Shown: piece by piece, positions 4,811-63,389 of the stretch
Numbering within the stretch: the first letter of the stretch is position 1
Layout: every line of letters begins with the position of its first letter
Source of the DNA: Ginglymostoma cirratum
Taxonomy: Eukaryota
DNA length: 64,000 nt
Direction: 5' to 3'
Assembly (NCBI GenBank): GCA_024137785.1
Contig: JAHRHZ010000082.1
Coordinates: 8,324,371-8,388,370, forward strand
Position numbers and translations under genes: made by a program
Notes under the pieces: model-generated
The model's database searches: none
What the model was told of the DNA's origin: nothing
What the model saw: only the letters and a program-made list of their open reading frames with translations

Positions 4811-4826
4811 AAACTTGAGGACACGA

Positions 4827-5148
4827 GGGCGGCACGGTGGCACAGTGGTTAGCACTGCTGCCTCACAGCACCAGGGACTGGGGTTTGATTCCACCCTTTG
4901 TGTAGAGTTTGCACATTCTCCCTGTGTCTGTGTGGGTTTCCTCCAGGTGCACTGGTTTCCTCCCACAGTCCAAAAATGAGCAGGCTAGGTGGATTGGCCA
5001 TGCTAAATTGCCCGTAGTGTTTAGAGGTGTGTAGGTTAAGTGGGTTAAAGGGTAATGGGTCTGGGTGGGATGCTCTGAGGTTCGGTGTAAACTTGTTGGG
5101 CTGACGGGCCTGTTTCCACACTGTGTAGGGATTCAGTGATTCTATGAC
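4827..5148 (+). mobile_element. HE1-like V-SINE (tRNA head, V domain, CR1-like tail)
   Basis: gggcggcacggtggcacagtggttagcactgctgcctcacag head; V-domain gagtttgcacattctccc...ggtttcctcccacagtccaaa; gattctatga tail. Confidence 0.9.
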
Positions 5149-8896: not shown

Positions 8897-9005
8897 AAAT
8901 AAAAAACTGAAAGAACTGCTGACGCTGAGAGCTCTGAGGAAGGGTCACCGGACCCGAAACGTTAACTCTTGATTTTTTTTTCTTCACAGATGTTGCCAGA
9001 CTGGT
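8897..9005 (+). mobile_element. Penelope-like pseudo-LTR fragment with short inverted tail piece
   Basis: ctgaggaagggtcaccggacccgaaacgttaactct...cacagatgttgccagac matches the element at 10295; the upstream aaaaactgaaagaactgctgacgctg is the approximate reverse complement of that element's 3' end. Confidence 0.75.
8927..8970 (+). ncRNA. Putative minimal type I hammerhead ribozyme
   Basis: CUGAGGA 8934-8940, extra A, stem II GGGUC-ACCG-GACCC, GAAAC-GUU; stem I gagagcu/aacucuu pairs 6 of 7 including one G-U. Confidence 0.65.
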
Positions 9006-10260: not shown

Positions 10261-10950
10261 TTAAGATCATAAGAAATAGGAACAGGACTAGGCTTCTGAG
10301 GAAAAGTCCCTGGACCTGAAACGTTAACTCTGATTTCTCTCCACGGATGCTTCCAGACTTGCTGAGCTTTTCCAGCAATTTTTGACTTTTTTTTTCTCTC
10401 TGATTTACAGCATCTGCAGTTCTTTCATTTTTTTTAAACAGGAGTAGGCTGTTTGGTCCCTCGAGCCTGCTTCATCATTCAATAGGATCATGGCTGATCT
10501 GACTCTCCTCACATTCACTTTCCTGCCTTTTTCCCTTTACCTTTGGTTGATAATGAATCTCTTTATCTTAGACTTAAATATACTTGAGGATTGCAGCGCT
10601 ACAGCTTTCTGCGGCAAGGAGTTCCAAAGACTCTCAACCCTCTGAAAAGAAATCCCTTCTTCTCCCAATTTTAAATTGGTACCCCTTTATTCTGGGACCA
10701 TGTACTCTGGTCCTAGACTCTCCCATGAGGGGAAACATCCTCGGCATTTACCCTGTCAAGCGCTTTAAGAATCATATATGTTTCAATGACTTCACCTTGC
10801 AGTCTTCCAAACTCCAGCGAGTAGAGCACCAACCCATTTAGCCTTTGTTCACAAAACAATCTCTCAATATCATCCTTGTGAACTTTCTCTGAACTGCCTT
10901 CAGTGAAATTATATCTCCCCTGAAGTAAGGGGAGAAAACTTGCTCAAGAA
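10261..10950 (-). mobile_element. CR1 3' fragment hosting a PLE insertion
   Basis: Antisense tail taagatcataagaaatagg, then typical antisense 3'UTR/ORF2 end (ctctggtcctagactctccc, gaactttctctgaactgcc). Confidence 0.85.
10295..10436 (+). mobile_element. Short PLE-derived element with hammerhead motif and 14-bp TSD
   Basis: Starts tctgaggaaaagtccctggacctgaaacgttaactctg; flanked by aacaggactaggct (10281-10294) and aacaggagtaggct (10437-10450). Confidence 0.8.
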
Positions 10951-13004: not shown

Positions 13005-13212
13005 AAAAATAACAAAGAAATGCAAATGCTGGAAATCTGAAATAAAAGCATAAATTGCTAGAGGAACTCAGCAGGTCTGGCAGTATCTGTAGAGGGAAAA
13101 CAGAGTTAATGTTTTGAGTCCAGTAGAAAAGTCACTGGACCTGAAAAATTAACCCTGTTTTCTATCCACAGATGCTGCTGGACCTGCTGAGTTCTCCAGC
13201 AACTTCTGTCAT
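13005..13212. mobile_element. PLE-derived fold-back (inverted repeat) element
   Basis: Arms ~13055-13124 and ~13133-13202 are imperfect reverse complements (aactcagcaggtctggcag / ctgctggacctgctgagtt). Confidence 0.8.
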
Positions 13213-13373
13213 TGTGTCATTGATCTCTCTGTGGGTCTGGGTTCTTCTCAGCACATGCATGGCCCAAATGTAAAACAGGGTCACTGCTGGACCACATGCA
13301 TGTTATGTCAATGCTGACTTGGCATATTTTATGGCAGTTATTGCATCTTTTATGATTTCAAGAAGGCGTTATG

Positions 13374-19334: not shown

Positions 19335-19460
19335 AAAGTACGAACTGCAGGTGCTGGAGAATCTGAGATAACAAGGTGTAGACCTGGATGAACACAGCAG
19401 GCCAAGCAGCATCAAAGGAGCAGGAAAGCTGACATTTCGGGCCGAGACCCTTCTTCAGAA
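19335..19460 (-). mobile_element. PLE-derived single-arm element with hammerhead core
   Basis: Same sequence as the left arm of 21801 and 62844; minus strand 19458-19431 reads CTGAAGA-A-GGGTC-TC-GGCCC-GAAATGTC. Confidence 0.85.
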
Positions 19461-19729: not shown

Positions 19730-21110
19730 TAAAACATTAAAAGCAGAACTAGGCCATTCACCCCTTTGAATCCAGTCCATCATTCAGTGAGAGCATCGCT
19801 GATCCTATTAATTTAAGCTCCAATTTTCAGTCATTCCCCATAACCCTTGGTCCACATCCTGATTAAAAATCTAACTATCTAAGCTTTGAAATACTTAAAT
19901 GACTCAGCCTCAACAGCCCTCTGTGGTGAAGAATTACAAGATTCACAAGCATATGAGCAAAGAAATTAATCCTCATCACTGTTTTTAGTGGTTTGACCCC
20001 TTACGCTGAGATAATGTCTTCTGGTCCTAAACCCTCCAGAAAGGGAAAGAACCTTTTAGCATCTGCCTGTCAAGCCCACAAATTACCTTAATGTTCCTGT
20101 AAGGTTTGCTTTCTTTTTTCTAAACTCCATTACCTACAAGTCCAAGCTACTCAACCTATCTTCATAAGAAAATCTCTCCATGCGCTGAATTAAGCGAGTG
20201 AACTTTCTCTGGACTGCCTCCAATGCCAGCATATCTTTCCTTATAAAACAGCTCACAGTATTCCAGATGTGGTCTGACCAGTGTCTTGTATAGTTTTAGA
20301 AGACTTCCTTATTTTTTTTACTCCACTCCTGTTGAAATAAAGGCCAATATTCTGTTTGCCTTCCCTATTATCCAATGAACTTGTATGCTAACTCTTTGTG
20401 GCTCATGCACTAGGATTCCCAAATCCTTCTGCACTGCATCTTTCTGCAGTCTTTCTTCATTTAAATAATATTCATTCCTCTATTCTTGCCAAACCTCCAC
20501 ATTTTTCCACATTAAATTCCATCTGCAAAGTGTTTTCACGTGTTCTTAACTTCTCTGCATTGCTGTAGATTTTTTGTGTCACCCTCACCACTTTAGGGGA
20601 GGTGATGGCCGATTGGTATTATTGCTGGACTGTTAATCCAGAGACCCAGTAACATCTGGAGGCCTGGGTTCAAATCCAACCATGGCAGGTTTTGAATTTG
20701 AATTTAATAAATATCTGAAATTAAGAATCTAGCAATGACCATGAGTCGATTGTCAGGGGAAAATCCCATCTGGTTCACCAATGTCTTTTAGGGAAGGAAA
20801 CTGCCATCCTTACCTGGTCTGGCCTACATGTGACTTCAGACCCACGGCAATGTGGTTGACTCTTAACTGCCCTCTGGGCAATTAGGGATGGGCAATAAAT
20901 ACTGGCCTAGCCAGTGATACCCTCATCCTGAGGATGAATAAAGAAAAAAAACTTTCCTTTGCACCTATTTTTGTGTCATCTGCAAATTTTAGTGATAGCA
21001 TATTCATTTCCCTCATCTAAGTCATTAACAAATATTATAAATATTTGTAGCCCCAGCACTGACCCTTGTCACACTCTGCTAGGTATAGGTTGCCATTGGA
21101 AAATGCCCTC
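19730..21110 (-). mobile_element. CR1 LINE, 5'-truncated, with part of RT domain (pseudogenic)
   Basis: Minus strand encodes QGSVLG (~21050-21070, preceded by a stop) and KFADDTK (~20969-20989), then ORF2 C-terminus and 3'UTR; interrupted by a SINE. Confidence 0.9.
20596..20951 (+). mobile_element. tRNA-derived SINE (family B), full length, inserted in CR1
   Basis: ggggaggtgatggcc...tggta A-box-like, gggttcaaatcc B-box, tail gggcaattagggatgggcaataaat...gaataaagaaaaaaaa; possible acttt TSD. Confidence 0.9.
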
Positions 21111-21128
21111 CCAAACCACATGACCTAA

Positions 21129-22217
21129 TGTTGTAAAATGAGTCAATTTAAACAAGCTTTCTTGAATTAGCAATAAGAGTAAACTTATTAATTACTATCC
21201 ATGACAAGAAATACCAAAGCAACATATACACACACAGATTAGAAATAGGAGGTGAGTCCAAAATAACAAAACGTTACAGCAATCAGATTCTGCACACAGA
21301 GTGGATAGCTGATTGTTGCCACTCTTGTACTGGAGGTTACAGATAGCATTGCTATTGGTATTTGAACAGTTGGCTTCAAGATTCTTAGTTTTTCAGATTG
21401 GTTGAAATTCTGTCGTTCTGATTCTTTTCAACTAAGATTAAATTTCAGCTTTCGGGAATGATGTCCTCTTTCATTTTATCTGGTCTACAGGATTTAGTGT
21501 GAGAGAGGGTCTTACTTTAACTGCAGTCTTTGGGTGACTAGGAGAATGTTTGCATCCAGGTTGGTACATGCACAATGCTCAGTTCCTACTTGCACTTTCC
21601 AGTTGAGTCGAAATTGTCTTTTTAACCCCTGTCCTTGTGTGTTCTTCAAAGGGAAAAACAACATGTATCTGCGGTTTGGGACAAAATCCACAGGGGCTGC
21701 CTTACTGTTGAGTAGGGGATTATTGGCCCCACATTATTTTTGTTTTCACAGGCGATTACAATATAGTGTCTTTTGACTTGCCTATCACCCCCTTTGAAGG
21801 CGTAGTAGGAACTGCCGATGCTGAAGAATCTGAGATAACAAGGTGTAGAGCTGGATGAACACAGCAGGCCAAGCAGCATCGGAGGAGCAGGAAAGCTGAC
21901 GTTTCGGGTCTAGACCAGAAAGGTCTTCTGAAGAAAGGTCTAGACCCGAAGCATCAGCTTTCCTGCTCCTCCGATGCTGCTTGGCCTGCTGTGTTCATCC
22001 AGCTCTAAACCTTGTTATCCCCTTTTGAAGGGCTGTTATTTGAAATTCCCTTCACAATGATGGGTGTGTTATTTGTGGATTTTTCTTTCCAGATAACCAC
22101 TTCCTTTCCATCCACAGTTGTTTTTGGCTGTATAAGTCCTCTTTTAGAAAGCACAATTTTGAAATTGCAAGTTAAATAGGTCCACAGTAATTCTGAGTTG
22201 TGACCCGTGGTTGTGAC
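21129..22217. mobile_element. Possible decayed solo LTR hosting the PLE fold-back insertion
   Basis: Begins tgttgta and ends near ttgtgac; composition resembles LTR-like shark repeats; no TSD identified. Confidence 0.25.
21801..22018. mobile_element. PLE-derived fold-back element with 13-bp TSD
   Basis: 83-bp arms 21834-21916 and 21937-22019 with ~3 mismatches; TSD ccccctttgaagg (21788-21800) / ccccttttgaagg (22019-22031); decayed hammerhead at 21928-21955. Confidence 0.9.
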
Positions 22218-23190: not shown

Positions 23191-24054
23191 AAGAAGATAT
23201 GAGGGATGGATAAATGCTGGCATAGCCCATCCATGTCCCATGAATAACTTAAAAAATCTTTGAGGGCTAGTTGGGCACTCGGTCACATCTATGACCTTAG
23301 GCATCATCTGTCTCTCTCCCCCTAGTGTTCCACTTATTTAGCTTCTACATACAACCAATGTCAATATAGGTAGTCAGCTACGAGATCCTTCCACTGAGAT
23401 CTTCGCCCAGTTGGAGAGGTCCTGTCCCTTCAAGGGGAGCAGTCATGTTTTCTCTGAGCTAATGCTGCCATCAGGTTAGTGAGAAGACAGCATCAAGTCT
23501 GTGTGCTGCCTACTTCGGTGGCAACAAGTACAGCAGGTTGTGAGTGACCATCCCTTCACCCAGAACACGGTGCGCACAATTTTTGTACTTGTACACAATG
23601 CATCCACACTACAGCCTTTGAAAGAGTGGCGCAGCAATACTGCAACATCATTTAATGGACAGAATGTTACATTGTATCAATTGCCGCATCTTCTAATTTG
23701 TCAGAAGTGACCGATTCACTAAGTTTGACTTTTCAGTGTCTCTCTGAACCAATGTTTTCACAAACATTGATAAAATTGGCCAAATGTATAACATTGGCCC
23801 TCGCTGCAATTTTCAATGGAGCCTGGCACTTGCCTGGCAATCTTTCCTGGTTTCATGACTGTTTCATATAGCCATGCTAATGTCCTGGTGGATTATAGCC
23901 TTGCAATAACAGTGGCATTATTAACTAATGTCAACTGTTTACTTTTTTTTATAGCAGTGATAGTCATTACAGTCATTGCGATTTTGCAGTGGCCTATCAA
24001 ACTTCAGGCCAGTGCATAATTTTTGGTGGGTGTAGAGAGTTGCTTCAGCAACAA

Positions 24055-24399
24055 GAAGGCAATGGCTTAATGGTATTATCGCTAGCCTATTATTCCAAAG
24101 ATCCAAATAATATTCAGGGGAACTGGATTCAAATCCTCCCATGATAGACAGTGGACAGTTTTTAAAAAAAAAATCTGAAATGAATAGTCTAATGTGACAC
24201 CGTTGCCAATTTTTGGGCAAATATCCATCTGGTTTACTAATTTCTTGGAGCAAAGCAGTCTTTACTGGTCTGGCATACATGTGACTCCAGAACCAGAGCA
24301 ATGTGATTGACTGTTACCTTCCTTCTGGATAATTATAGATGGGTATTAAATGCTGGCCTGGCTAAAAACGCCCACATCCCACGAACAAATTTTTAAAAA
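24055..24399 (+). mobile_element. tRNA-derived SINE family B (diverged)
   Basis: Aligns along its length with 20596-20951 (ccatctggtt, catgtgactccaga, taaatgctggcc). Confidence 0.85.
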
Positions 24400-27023: not shown

Positions 27024-27336
27024 GGGAAGGTATGGTGGCTCAGCGGTTAGCACCGCTTCTTCACAGCGTCAGGGACCCGAGTCTAATTGCATCCTCAGGC
27101 AACTTTCCTCCGGTGCTCTGGTTTATTGCCACAGCCCAAAGATGTGCAACTTAGGTGGATTGGCCATGCTGAATTGTCCGTAGTGTCCAGGAATCTGTAG
27201 GCTAGGTGAGTTAGCCATGGGAAATGCAAAATTACAGGGATAGGGTAGGGGAGTGTGTTTGAGTGGGATGCTGTTTTGAGGAGTCCGTGTAGACCTGAAG
27301 GGTCAAATGGCCTGCATCCACACTGTACAGATTCTA
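27024..27336 (+). mobile_element. HE1-like V-SINE with internal deletion
   Basis: tggtggctcagcggttagcac head; ggtggattggccatgct; cacactgtacagattcta tail. Confidence 0.85.
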
Positions 27337-28368: not shown

Positions 28369-30523
28369 AGCATTACAATGGGAAGGAAGGTTTCAACTGA
28401 GTTTATCTCTTCAAAACAGGGCATGAGGAGGCTTGCCTTGAAGTGCAAGTGTTGAGATTGGTAACAGTCAGTTGTGGGGTACTGGCCTCTTTCATTACTC
28501 AACACTCTGTAATTTTACTTTTAATGGGTCATGCTGCAAGACATGTGAATAAAAAAGCAATCTGGCAATTTAAGGCTTTAAAGAATATGTTTATGTGAGC
28601 TGGAACAACAAGTAAGCGTTATCAGTCCGAAGGAATAGAGCCCCTTAAGGTACACGGTGTAGCTATTTATTAAATGGTGCAGGGTTTCTCAGTCATGTAT
28701 AAAACCAAATCAGTTCTATTAATGGTATTAAAATAAGAACAGTTGTGTTTTAGTTTGTCCAGATAATGTACTAACTACTTTGGCATACCAAACAAAAATC
28801 AAATGACTCGAGTGGTGCTGGAACCAACAGAAAACCAGCGTTACATGTTTCTCTTTCCCAAGACCTGCACTCTATTTGGATGCTTCATATCACAAGTTTT
28901 GGGAACACTCATTTAATTATGAATACACATATCATAGTTAACAGTTCATGAGCTACAATTGCTCCTGTTCACTGACCCTGCTGTGGTGTCTTTTTGATCT
29001 ACTTTGGAGAGTCCTTTCTCTACCTTACCTTTATAGAACATATTGGCTGCAAGCTCTTAGAAATTGAATATTCAAATACATTTAAGGCAGATAAACATTT
29101 ATGAGGAAGCTTTTTGCTTCAAGTTGTTTTCAGGTTGTGAATTTGCAAGGGATGCATGTGTTTTCAGTAATATTATCTGAAAGTAGATCATTCAAATGGG
29201 TTTCCATTTTTTGTTTGTGATGCAACGCACATAAATATACATTACTATGAACCACTCCAAGAGGATGGAAGGAAATGACCTGCTCAAGCTCTGAGGCAAG
29301 CATATGTGTTATTTACCTGAAACCATTGATTTTCCCCATTGCTCTGTAAGGAGCTGTCTAGTTTCTGATTTCCCCACAGCCATGCTGTTGAGCTGAAATC
29401 AACAGCACTGGAATCCAACTGGCATCCCAACCTGCAAAGGTGCAGTGCTTTGATACTCCTGAATTTTTTTAATTTAAGATCATTGGTGACCCATGTTCCG
29501 AATACAAAAGGTTCCTCCACTTCAGTGACACAATCTAAAACATGAGCTGTGGTACATGTGGCTTATGCTGTTTGGCCGAAATTTTCCACTGGCCAAACAG
29601 TTGTTATTCTAGACTAGGTAGGAATTGCTCATGGAGAATCCTGTGGAATCCCTATCATAACAGACTCTGACGGAATTTCCTGGGAAACTGAAGATCCCAC
29701 TGGGCAATTTCCTGACAATTGGAACTCTCCAAAAATCTTTTAAATTGGAATTCAGAAGGATCCAATGAAATTAAGGAAATAGTTACAGAGGAATAGTTAG
29801 ATGATTAAATACATAACTTAACTCCTTTCCAAAATGCAGAGCTCGCTCCTTTCATTAACAAAAAAAGAGGCAATTTGACGATCTCGCTGAGATTGCCACG
29901 CCTCAGAAAATCTGTCCGAATATGTTTCTCTTTGGACTTCTGCTTACTTCAAGGATGCTGTTTGCTTGGCCCTTGGTAAACCTTAGTAATCTAATAACAA
30001 TGTATTTATGTATGCACGTAACTATGCAATCTTTTGATTCATACAGTCTATTAAGGTGTATCACTGTACATTTTGGAAGATTATATGAGTTAGGTGAGGT
30101 GAGACCGTTCACCGGAATGAATACAAGAATATCTAGAAACGTGATAAAAGATCTGTTTTTTTTTAAAAAAACCTGTGATCTGAACATCAATGTAGCTGTA
30201 AAATGTGTCTACAAGAAATAGAGAGAGCAGAGGTGGATTGTTTTTAATATTGTGATGTAAGGTATATGATCTATGTGTATTTATTGCCATTTATTTCAGA
30301 GTATGGATTTTGAACTAGTGTCGCAGGGGTTTAGTTTGCATGTATGAGAAGGCCTAATAATTAATTTGTTATGTTTTCTGGAGCCTTGATTTTTTTTTAA
30401 AGACAAGTATGAGAGAGACACTTATGGAGTGGTATCAGTTTTCTTTCAGTTAGGGCTTTTTTTTGAATAAGGAAATCCCCTATAGCTTAGAACGCTTTTT
30501 GTATCAGTCATGGGTTGAAGTTC

Positions 30524-30733
30524 TTTTTCTTTATTCATTCACAGGATGAGGGCATTGCCGGCTAGGCAGCATTTATTGCCCAGAGAGCAGTTAAGAGTCA
30601 AGCACATTGCTGTGGGACTGGAGTCAAATGTAGGCCAGACCAGGTAAGGATGGCAGTTTCCTTCCCTAAAGGACATGCGTAAACCAGATGGGTTTTTCTG
30701 ACAATCGGCAATGGATTCACGGTCATCATTAGA
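30524..30733 (-). mobile_element. SINE family B, 5'-truncated
   Basis: Reverse complement of the 3' half of 20596-20951. Confidence 0.9.
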
Positions 30734-31155
30734 ATGATGAACAGAATGATGATACAAACCAACAGTCTGGCACAGAACAGCGAACCTGGCAAATTCAGCA
30801 GATCATTGCTAGTTATACAGAAAATCAGGGTCCCAAAGAGGCCACTTGAGTTTGACCCATTCAGTATTTTGCACAAGTGAGAAGTGTGGTGTATTGGAAA
30901 GTAGCTTTCTCTGCCTGTATGAGCAGGCAGTAGTTCAGCAACAGACAGAAAACAAGGCTGTTTCTGTGTCCATCAGTTCAGTTTCTGTTGAAGGCATCTT
31001 TGACTCCAGAGGAATTTACCTCTTTTTTTTTTTTGCTGCTGTGCAATGTGAGATGCCAGTCAAGCACGCTCTTTTGGATGAGGCTCCTTCTAGTTGCAAA
31101 CTGAGGCCGAGATAGAATAGAGAGGGAGGAAAATAAGGTAGATAGTAAAGAAGTG

Positions 31156-31503
31156 AGGCACGGTGGCTCAGTGCTTAGCACTGCTCCCTCACAGCATCAG
31201 GGACCCAAGTTCATTTTTGCCCTCGGGTGACTGTCTGTGTGGAGTTTGCACGTTCTCTCTGTGTCTGTGCTGGTTTTCTCTGGGTGCTCTGGTTTCCTCC
31301 CACAAGGATTTGCAGGTTAGGTGGATTGGCTTCGCTAAATTGCCCATAGTGTCCAGGGATGTGCAGGTTAGGTGGATTAGCCATGGGAAATGCAGGGATA
31401 GGGTAGGGGGCTGGGTCTGGATGGGATTTCTTTGGAGAGCTGATGTGGACCCAGTGGGCTGAATGGCCTGCTTTCACACTGTAGGGATTCTATAATTCTA
31501 TGA
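31156..31503 (+). mobile_element. HE1-like V-SINE
   Basis: ggcacggtggctcagtg head, ctgtgtggagtttgcacgttctc V-domain, duplicated gcaggttaggtggatt, gattctataattctatga tail. Confidence 0.9.
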
Positions 31504-34104: not shown

Positions 34105-34145
34105 CCAGACCTGCTGTGTTTCTCCAACACTTTCTGTTTTCACTT
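34105..34145 (+). mobile_element. Small PLE pseudo-LTR fragment (no hammerhead part)
   Basis: ccagacctgctgtgtttctccaacactttctg matches the arms at 13180-13205 and 10353-10380. Confidence 0.5.
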
Positions 34146-34224: not shown

Positions 34225-34850
34225 CCTCTCCCCAGTGTTCCCCTGTCCCCTCACTGCCCTGCTCACCCTCTAATCTGCCCTCCCCTCACTGCCCTCACTG
34301 CCCTGGTCACCCTCTCTATTCTTCACTCCCCTCACTGCCCTGCTCACCCTCTTCATTCTCCACCCCCCTCACTGCCCTGCTCACCCTCTCTATTCTCCAC
34401 TGCCCTGCTCACCCTCNNNNNNNNNNGCTCACCCTCTCTATTCTCCACTGCCCTGCTCACCCTCTCTATTCTCTACTCCCCTCACTGTCCTGTCACCCAC
34501 TTCATTCTCCACTCCCCTCGTTGCCCTGTCACCCTCTCTATTCTCCATTCCCGTCAGTGCCCTGTCACCCTCTCTATTCTCCACTGCCCTCACTGCCCTG
34601 CCCTCCCTCCCTATTCTTCACACCTGTAATCAGCCCGCTCACCCTCTCCATTCTCCATTCCCTTACTGCCCGGCTCACCCTTTAATCTGCCCTACCCTCA
34701 CTGTCCTGCTCACCCTCTCCCCTCCATTGCCTGTTCACCCTCTCCATTCTCCACTTCCCTCACCACCTACATGTCCCTCCATTTTTCCACTTCTGGCTTT
34801 GCCTGCTTGCTCCTTTGTTTTCCTCTTCCCTTGCTGCCTGCTCATCCTGT
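34225..34850. repeat. C/T-rich minisatellite, ~37-bp unit with 28-bp variant
   Basis: Unit cccctcactgccctgctcaccctctctattctccact repeated, degenerating toward both edges. Confidence 0.9.
34417..34426. other. Assembly gap (10 N)
   Basis: nnnnnnnnnn inside the minisatellite. Confidence 1.
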
Positions 34851-43754: not shown

Positions 43755-45340
43755 TCACAGAATCATAAAATTGTTATGGCGCAGAAGGAGGCCATTCAGC
43801 CCATCAGGTACTGTATATACCTAGGTACGTGTGACAATAATAACTCAAATCTCCAATGAGCATTATGACTCACTGTCATTCTCCTGCCTTTTCCCCACAC
43901 CCTTGCATATTATTTTTATTCAAATAGTCACTTAATACCCTCTTGAATGCCTCAAATGAATCTGCCTCCACCACAATTCCAGGCAGTGCATTCCAGACCT
44001 GAACTACTCATAGAGTCATACAGCATGGAAACAGACCCTTCGGTCCAACCTGTCCATGCCGACCATCATCCCAAACTAAGCTCGTCCCATCTGTCTGCAC
44101 TTGGGCCCATTTCCCTCCAAAGCTTTTCTATTGATGGACTCATCTAAATGTCTTTTAAATGTTGTAACTGTAGCTGCATCCACCACTTCCTCTGGAAGTT
44201 CATTCCACACATGGACCACTCTCTGTGTAAGAAAAGTTGTCCCTCAGGTCTTTTCTTAAATCTTGCTCCTCTCACCTTAAAAATACGCCCCCTCGTCTTG
44301 AAATCCCCTTCCTTGGGAAAAGATACCTGTTATTCACCTTTTCTATACCCCTCGTTATTTTATAAACCTCTAAGGTCACCTCTCAACTACCTACGCACCA
44401 ACGAGAAAAGTCCCAGCCTATCCAGCCTCTCCTTATAACTCAAACCCTCCAGCAACATTCTGGTAAATCTCTTCTGAACCCTCTCCAGCTTAATAATATC
44501 CTTCCTGTAACAGGGCAACGAGAACTGGACACAGTACAGAGGAGGTCTTACCAATGTCCTGTGCAACCTCAACATAAAGTCCCAAGTTGTACATTCAGCA
44601 GTCTGAGCAATAAAGGCAAGAATGCTAAAAGCCTTCGTAACTATTTTATCTGTATGTGATACTAACTTCAAAGAATTATATACTTGAACTCCTAGGTCTC
44701 TCTGTTCTTCAACACTGCCCAAGGCCCTACTTTTAATTGTATAAGTCTTATCTTTTGTTTTACCAAAATGATAAATGTGAGGTATTATAATGTGATGCTC
44801 CATTTGCCACTCTCCAGTCCATTGACCCAATTGACTAAGATTGCTTTATAATCTCAGATAACTTCCTTCACTGTCCACTATACCGCCAATCTTGGTGTCT
44901 TCCGCAAACTTTCACTCATTGTGAGGAAAACCGTTTTCACACATCACATTTGCAATTCACTTCAAATCTGTGCCCTCACTTTTTCTCCCTCCTTTTATGA
45001 ACTGGAACAGGTATTTCCTATCTACAGTATCCAGACCCCTCATAATTTTGAAAACTTCGATCAGATGTCTTCTTGAACTTCCTTGTCTTCAAGGAGAACA
45101 GTGCCAACCTCTCCAATCGATGCTCATGACTGAAGTTGTTCCCCCCAGAAGTACATTTTTTGAAGTCTTTTCTGCACTGTCTTCAAAGCGTCCACGTCCT
45201 TTTCTACGGACCCAGAAGTGAACACCAGCTGAGGTCCAATGTGTGTTTTATTTAAGTTTATCATAACCTCCTAGATCTTGTAGTCTATGTCCCTGTTAAT
45301 AAAGCCAAGGATACTGTATGCTTTATTAACTACCGTCTCC
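43755..45340 (-). mobile_element. Older CR1 3' fragment split by a younger CR1
   Basis: Segments 43755-44005 and 44914-45340 join into a sequence matching 13745-14048 (ccagacctga.c.actcattgtg). Confidence 0.8.
44006..44913 (-). mobile_element. Younger CR1, 5'-truncated at the RT catalytic motif
   Basis: ORF 44387-44830 (QRDLGVQV...LVRP..YCVQF...KDIIKLERVQKRFTRML.GLSYKERLDRLGLFSL); KFAEDTKIGG at ~44880-44910; actcat duplicated at 44006 and 44914. Confidence 0.93.
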
Positions 45341-56653: not shown

Positions 56654-57305
56654 TGGCTCAATACTTGGCTTTGTTGCTTCTAACTCTCAAGGTTGTGGAT
56701 TTTCCACTCAGCACATGAGCAGACAATGTAGATCAACAATTCAGCGGGGAGGTGATAGCCTAGTGGTATTTTTGCTGGACTAATAATTCAGAGACCCAGA
56801 TAATATTCCGTGGACTCAGATGGCCGAATTTGAATTCAATAAAAATAATCTGGAATGAAGAGTCTAATGGTGACCATGAATTCATTGCCTCCAAGTGACT
56901 CCAGACCCACAGCAATGTGGTTGACTCTTAACTGCCCTCTGGGCAATAGGGATGGGCAGCGACACCCTCATCCCGTAAATGAATAAAGAATAAAGCACTG
57001 AAGGAGAGTTGTATTACTGACCATCTGCAGGTTTATGTGGATGATCAAGATCCCATGGCACAATTTTGGAAAACAGTGGAGTTCTTCTGCTGTCCTGGCC
57101 AATGTGTATTCTTCAACTGATGTCACTATAGGTTATCTGGTCAGGTATTTATTTGCTGTTTGTAGGACTTTGCTGTGCCCAAATTAGCCACTGTGTTGGT
57201 CTCCATTACAAGTCACTACATTTCTGAAGTGGTTAATTGGTTCTGCAGTTGCCTATTGGGATATGCTTTCAAAGTAAAAAGCAATATATAAATGCAAAAC
57301 TTTTA
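56654..57305 (+). mobile_element. DeuSINE (SacSINE1/AmnSINE1-like), interrupted by SINE B
   Basis: Deu-domain-like gatcccatggcac...gagttct...tgtcctggccaat...ttatctggtca...ttgctgtttgtagga.tt.gctgtgc.caaatt; tail tatataaatgcaa. Confidence 0.75.
56746..56992 (+). mobile_element. SINE family B with internal deletions, nested in DeuSINE
   Basis: ggggaggtgatagcctagtggta head to cccgtaaatgaataaagaa tail. Confidence 0.9.
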
Positions 57306-62818: not shown

Positions 62819-62843
62819 AGAAACCTGTCTCCATATTTGAGAG

Positions 62844-63040
62844 ATAGTAGGAACTGCCGATGCTGGAGAATCTGAGATAACAAGGTGTAGATCTGGATGA
62901 ACACAGCAGGCCAAGCAGCATCAGAAGAGCAGGAAAGCTGACATTCAGAAAGAAGAAGGGTCGAGACCCGACACGTCAGCTTTCCTGCTCCTCTGATGCT
63001 GCTTGGCCTGCAGTGTTCATCCAGCTGTACACCTTGTTAT
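62844..63040. mobile_element. PLE-derived fold-back element with 14-bp TSD
   Basis: Arms ~62877-62944 and ~62973-63040 with ~5 mismatches; TSD tccatatttgagag (62830-62843) / tccatatttaagag (63041-63054). Confidence 0.9.
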
Positions 63041-63389
63041 TCCATATTTAAGAGTTTCCTCACCAAGCTATCAAGTTAGCTGCTGAACTTCAGTTCCTTA
63101 TTTGCCCTTAATGGAGCAAACATTCTCTATTAATAGGGACAGAAAAATTAGAAGATTTAGGGAAAATAATATGTAAAACTTAAAACTCCTCAAAGAGGAA
63201 TTGCTTGAGGTTAACGATAAATGTACACTTTGAATTGGACTTAGTTCTCTGCAATGTGAATTCCCCATACAGAGAATGATCCAGGAAGCTGCTGAAAGGA
63301 GATTGTGCACTTTTTCAATGCTGAGTAATCTGTGAGAATACTCCCTGATGTGGGCAAACACATAACAAAACACCATCAATGTAAGACAG

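Follow-up and report, generated by a model that had tools for sequence, protein, structure and literature searches.

The insert at positions 21801-22018 of the window (by which we mean the whole analysed stretch of 64,000 nucleotides from Ginglymostoma cirratum) is, with a probability of roughly 0.93, a one-off stump of a Penelope-like element (PLE), i.e. a heavily truncated head-to-head insertion of the element's 3' end. The arm that it carries twice is the 3' end, or pseudo-LTR (pLTR), of this genome's own RT + GIY-YIG PLE. The locus is real and, for PLEs, ordinary, and its layout has been published before; new here are the counts of a strict one-tail pairing and of a stop at the front edge of the hammerhead, both absent from the parts of PMC8557442 and PMC3846280 that we cite. 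In the main texts of the searchable literature we found no description of short PLE hairpins in sharks or of a MITE-like family of PLE hairpins, and no paper that proposes two-strand priming as the cause of PLE hairpins.

Structure of the insert and its surroundings

The insert comprises 218 bp, in which two inverted arms (21834-21916 and 21937-22019, 83 nt each, 96% complementary) are arranged head to head with a 33-nt tail on one side only, and it is bounded by a 13-nt direct repeat (21788-21800 and 22019-22031) with one mismatch; remeasurement confirmed this geometry as the earlier note had given it. Its parts are as follows.

21788..21800, no strand: left copy of the target-site duplication (TSD), 13 bp; where it meets the tail end is known only to within a few bases
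21801..21833, minus strand: PLE tail, 33 nt, ending at the outer of two fixed 3' ends
21834..21916, minus strand: tailed pLTR arm, 5'-truncated within stem II and devoid of CUGANGA
21917..21925, plus strand: templated filler at the junction, copying the sequence 15 nt downstream, private variant included
21926..22018, plus strand: tail-less pLTR arm, from the hammerhead front edge to the inner fixed 3' end
21928..21955, plus strand: decayed minimal type I hammerhead motif with lesions at 21936, 21951 and 21953
22019..22031, no strand: right copy of the TSD, 13 bp

The templated stretch, 10 nt in all (21917-21926), can be read directly from the sequence as a repeat of 21932-21941. The 218-nt hairpin is predicted to fold with -169 kcal/mol (z = -23), and none of 200 shuffled sequences folded equally well. 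An Rfam search returned no hammerhead match: all 19 matches at E up to 10 lie below the gathering score, and most are to miRNA hairpin models, with strong scores. We regard these sub-threshold miRNA matches as hairpin artefacts. The open reading frames of at least 130 aa in the window gave nothing informative on host gene context.

The motif of the family combines CUGANGA, a bulged base, the G10.1-C11.1 pair, stem II, GAAA and a palindromic stem III, all of which the relevant part of PMC4209133 lists as features of minimal type I hammerheads in metazoan PLEs. The majority of arms possess CUGANGA and GAAA, as the proposal of a hammerhead-bearing family had presupposed, and the intact minimal core with stem II has 7,363 exact matches genome-wide (reversed control 0); variation is concentrated at N7, in loop II and at a U-A/U-G pair, and the stem II pairs are kept in 94-96% of arms. 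The focal subfamily has a weak helix I (two pairs, a mismatch and one pair, as compared with the 4-5 bp described for metazoan PLEs), and that of the sister subfamily has 4 bp, with an extra A. Stem II of the family is 5 bp long (GGGTC/GACCC) with one bulged A ahead, and since it starts in this way after the bulged A, the G-to-A change at 21936, in the first stem II pair, counts as a third lesion beside those at 21951 and 21953. The earlier note, which read the centre as AA-GGTC..GACC-C, had recognized the motif correctly, but its division of the stem was off and this lesion was missed. Its statement that neither core is intact holds, with three lesions on the plus strand and a minus-strand motif cut inside stem II. 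On the minus strand, GACCCGAAACGTC is found at 21898-21910, and this motif is encountered seven times in the window at up to two mismatches, against 0.18 expected. The hammerhead of the focal copy is not intact, and it is predicted to be locked within the hairpin, where the computed pairing probability of stem II is about 1e-12 or lower.

Two further copies of the same family are present in the window.

19337..19460, minus strand: solo tailed arm that ends at the hammerhead front edge; a TSD was looked for around it and not found
62830..63054, no strand: second fold-back, with another centre and a 14-bp TSD (1 mismatch)

A second, related hammerhead-bearing family is represented by a more decayed fold-back at 13021-13222 (arms 13064-13124 and 13134-13194, 82% complementary) and by additional copies near 8951, 10301-10366 and 34105-34145. 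A pyrimidine-rich tandem array with a 36-nt period occupies 34248-34806. Other repeats include what we take to be a dispersed SINE-like family (4826-5047, 27024-27269 and 31152-31427), presumably another family of this kind (20596-20954, 24053-24379, 30518-30698 and 56746-56993) and a fragment that we assume to derive from a CR1-like LINE (44387-44845).

The arm as the pLTR of a coding element

The repeats of this genome seem to be of the cartilaginous-fish type. In a pattern search of its 4.36 Gb we counted 99,026 occurrences of an exact 27-mer from the arm and 3,006 of an exact 35-mer from the tail, with reversed controls of 0 in both cases. The earlier note had taken the arm for the pLTR of a PLE, complete with tail and minimal type I hammerhead, and this identification is borne out by arms that run on into RT and GIY-YIG sequence: upstream of the arm, on the hammerhead strand, there is a pyrimidine-rich 3' UTR, followed by GIY-YIG and RT sequence. 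Arms joined to decayed coding sequence (L127, L092, L124) share 95.5% and 93.9% identity with the focal arm; compared over 112 nt, tail included, the EN-linked arm of L127 matches it at 95.5%. PLE machinery is the likely agent of the insertion, as had been proposed.

An autonomous RT + GIY-YIG element with the same pLTR, the search for which had been suggested as a check, was found in a sister subfamily. With the N-terminal part as query, a protein search yielded 13,499 candidates, of which 150 were scored and 20 loci fetched for open frames. L182 contains an open frame of 1,049 aa between a partial arm with tail on its 5' side and a 3' pLTR with tail; against Pfam, RVT_1 scores above the cut-off and GIY-YIG reaches 23.4 bits (cut-off 22.6). 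L186 has the same 5' arrangement, i.e. a partial arm and tail ahead of the frame, and in both full-length copies the tail continues into the ORF. The open-frame copies belong to the sister subfamily, with 85% identity to the focal arm; none of these 20 loci contained one from the focal subfamily. The younger subfamily (L182, L186, L171-L190), characterized by an extra A after the cleavage triplet and a 4-bp helix I, comprises many near-identical copies with long open frames, and for this reason the PLE may have been active in the recent past. In L182 (6990-7003) and many long copies, the 3' UTR closes with a pyrimidine tract and TTTCAG, some 20 nt ahead of the hammerhead, and this resembles a splice acceptor; for D. 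virilis, a part of PMC4209133 describes PLE introns whose ends lie close to helix I.

The element looks Neptune-like, because the linker between RT and GIY-YIG carries a C-x4-C-x2-C motif (protein P0001), and according to the section of PMC8557442 cited here a CX2-5CxxC motif between RT and EN marks Neptune and is shared with Nematis. It resembles the Neptune clade in the order of RT, cysteine linker and C-terminal GIY-YIG, its placement being by motif, and its GIY-YIG domain contains CxxC and two histidines downstream. In the vertebrate sample of a preprint (bioRxiv 10.64898/2026.07.22.740005, as far as its cited part goes) only Neptune and Poseidon are represented. The genome also harbors, alongside the focal PLE, another RT + GIY-YIG element, which lacks the cysteine linker motif (L097:430-1380, L081:5070-5381), which by inspection is Poseidon-like.

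Ends and pairing of the arms

We collected 287 non-redundant arms from loci L001-L120 (contigs C1-C4 and C8) and from the window, about half of them picked by a tail anchor; arm ends were taken from local BLAST, which places them to within a few bases and misses very short arms. The 3' ends of the 287 arms fall into two classes 33 nt apart, and contigs of another sample have, among the matches listed, loose ends at 21803 and 21831-21833, matching both 3' ends. Head-to-head pairs combine one tailed and one tail-less arm in 84 of 92 cases, none has two tails and eight are tail-less; for the 40 pairs not picked by the tail anchor the corresponding numbers are 32, 0 and 8. Several of the eight tail-less pairs seem to be parts of units with at least three arms, both tandem and inverted, and insertions of at least three arms were seen at L006:1500-1905, L083:1999-2388, L101:6439-7110 and L107:7335-8006. 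A TSD of at least 10 nt was found in 70/84 cases, compared to 4/84 and 6/84 in shifted controls, with lengths of 10-19 nt (53 of 70 at 12-15 nt). Solo arms with a TSD include 15 tailed ones and 4 of 16 unpaired tail-less ones, with one tandem duplication set aside, in an uncontrolled search.

It is typical of PLEs, as stated in the cited parts of PMC8557442, PMC3846280 and PMC8969392, that a 5'-truncated copy lies next to the element in inverted orientation and that one end carries a tail. The insertion unit of EN+ PLEs, as outlined in portions of PMC8557442 and, for Adineta vaga Pen2a, of PMC3846280, is similar to ours in the head-to-head inverted pLTR, the TSD, the tail of 30-40 bp at one end (here 33 nt), the strong 5' truncation and the pLTR hammerhead; the present case likewise involves an element with RT and C-terminal GIY-YIG, a tail at one end and an inverted 5'-truncated copy enclosed by a TSD. 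It differs in that both focal arms are reduced to the pLTR and the coding sequence is gone, and in the TSD, which is mostly 12-15 bp here as opposed to the 8-10 bp given for Adineta in the cited part of PMC3846280.

With the exclusion of 41 arms that run on into the body and 38 with incomplete adjoining sequence, the 5' ends of truncated arms lie within 6 bases of the hammerhead front edge in 46/103 tailed and 34/76 tail-less arms (45%). The site of hammerhead cleavage is not enriched in 5' ends (3/103 tailed and 5/76 tail-less arms, compared to 3/4 and 4/2 in adjacent bins), which speaks against hammerhead-cleaved RNA as the template.

Arms within one insertion differ by 6.7%, compared to 9.6% after shuffling (minimum 8.8%; 2000 shuffles, 83 pairs), and within subfamilies by 6.65%, compared to 7.9% (minimum 7.4%; 69 of the 83 pairs). 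Paired arms share rare alleles at 13 of 4,555 sites, a rate that none of 1000 shuffles reached (0.17% at most), and one rare allele is common to both arms of the focal insert. At two of six diagnostic sites, paired arms agree in 24/24 and 58/60 cases, and elsewhere in 37/44 to 32/35. Since paired arms are more alike than shuffled ones, both arms of an insertion likely derive from one source element, although their similarity could instead stem from gene conversion.

Origin of the head-to-head arrangement

The best explanation overall is, with high probability, a truncated head-to-head insertion of a PLE 3' end, likely via priming on both cut strands of the target; two-strand priming as such has, in our estimate, somewhat better than even odds. 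Staggered nicks at the target would generate the TSD, and on RNA from one source element synthesis would begin at the tail end for one strand and 33 nt inward of it for the other. Each cDNA would stop early, often at the hammerhead front edge (either the RNA 5' end or an RT stop), and the two cDNAs would then be linked by end-joining, with either microhomology or templated filler, hammerhead cleavage being probably unnecessary. The 10-nt templated filler at the focal junction fits end-joining. According to the relevant passages of PMC11167929, a Poseidon protein nicks the two strands of the target in vitro and extends both of them, two RT start sites bound the tail and hammerhead cleavage is not needed; those passages do not tie two-strand extension to inverted insertions. 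The element studied there, Poseidon PAc of Anolis, resembles ours, as far as described in that part of the source, in a tail bounded by two start sites and reaching the ORF side of the RNA and in having no ends at the cleavage site, but its clade differs from that of the Neptune-like focal element.

A more tentative proposal, to which we give slightly less than even odds, is that the stumps may record PLE integration itself, with a protein dimer that would prime both strands, a fixed division of the start sites and run-off at an mRNA start located at the front edge. In full-length copies the tail immediately precedes the ORF, and RT starting within the 5' pLTR of the mRNA would therefore yield run-off copies of about 130 nt; such run-off may account for the 5' ends that pile up at the front edge.

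Self-primed fold-back copying of the first cDNA, halting 33 nt short of the tail end and followed by deletions across the palindrome centre, is a possible alternative that we nevertheless consider doubtful. Self-priming has been proposed for Adineta Penelope (in the cited part of PMC3846280), and palindromic centres do exist, at stem II in L076, L088 and L114 (3/61), at stem III in L011 and at the front edge in insertions of the L073 type. These centres, and the rare alleles shared by paired arms, fit fold-back copying and two-strand priming equally well. What separates the two is the tail-less arm, which is longer than the tailed one in 34/83 pairs (by 1.9 kb in L127) and also stands alone with a TSD (in the 4/16 cases given above); two-strand priming is therefore favoured, even if later asymmetric deletion could explain unequal arms. 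Moreover, of the 61 junctions of short fold-backs 19 have an overlap and 6 are blunt, whereas 36 contain filler, contrary to what fold-back copying would suggest.

The earlier note had viewed the insert as a candidate non-autonomous family inserted as a unit by PLE machinery; in such a family a hairpin RNA would be transcribed, processed by its hammerheads and put back whole by the PLE protein. Fixed outer ends, TSDs and many copies of 95-249 bp are consistent with such a family, two junction types recur, and non-autonomous PLE derivatives are known, namely MRC1 (in the cited part of PMC8557442) and tandem retrozymes (in that of bioRxiv 10.64898/2026.07.22.740005). Nevertheless, the central junction of the focal insert, searched for with up to one mismatch, is found a single time in 4.36 Gb, the 61 short fold-backs (95-249 bp) display 58 distinct inner junctions, and the tailed/tail-less layout is unbroken from 95 bp to 3.3 kb, with fold-backs of 1.8-3.3 kb (L123, L124, L127, L128, L129, L131) that have a TSD around the whole and EN and RT sequence on both arms. 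For these reasons we conclude that the insert did not arise by the copying of a whole unit. The junction seen most often is present in only seven exact copies genome-wide, too few for an amplified master carrying it, and its tail is on the short arm in five and on the long arm in two, which indicates that it arises repeatedly and not by copying. The two motifs lie on opposite strands, stem II is buried by the hairpin, and arm ends are not in excess at the cleavage site. Reinsertion as a unit is thus very unlikely, and for the focal copy already largely refuted. Random breakpoints had been named as evidence of ordinary truncation, and here the picture is divided: inner ends do vary, but they pile up at the front edge, and the outer ends are fixed. 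Non-LTR retrozymes, as portrayed in part of the same preprint, are similarly non-coding, pLTR-derived and endowed with a type I hammerhead motif, but they form head-to-tail tandems with complete motifs on one strand, and the focal insert, head-to-head with one broken motif per strand, is not one of them.

The last option, a MITE (i.e. a DNA transposon derivative) or post-insertion recombination between two neighbouring solo pLTRs, can practically be dismissed in spite of the hairpin shape and the high copy number of the arm, because the termini are not inverted (the 33-nt tail being on one side), TSD length is variable, a single TSD bounds the whole unit and the arms agree at diagnostic sites; that the arm is part of an RT-coding element refutes this option.

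The one-off PLE stump is likely a dead end, and the insertion is likely old, as suggested by a contig of run X1 that crosses the left junction with a flank about 5% different. The empty site was not seen in that run, in which one contig crosses the left junction by 32 letters and another the right one by only 22, too short an overlap to count as bridging.

On its own, the locus is ordinary repeat debris, and hairpins of this kind may be wrongly annotated as MITEs or miRNA precursors. Taken together, however, tens of thousands of these insertions provide statistics on the formation of inverted pLTRs with a one-sided tail, the origin of which is called unresolved in the cited parts of PMC8557442 and PMC11167929. 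The one-tail pairing, the common source of both arms and the stop at the front edge are predictions testable in an in vitro PLE system, and the dimer and run-off, if true, would offer a single mechanism for both the inverted pLTRs and the tail on one side, with no need for cleavage by the ribozyme.
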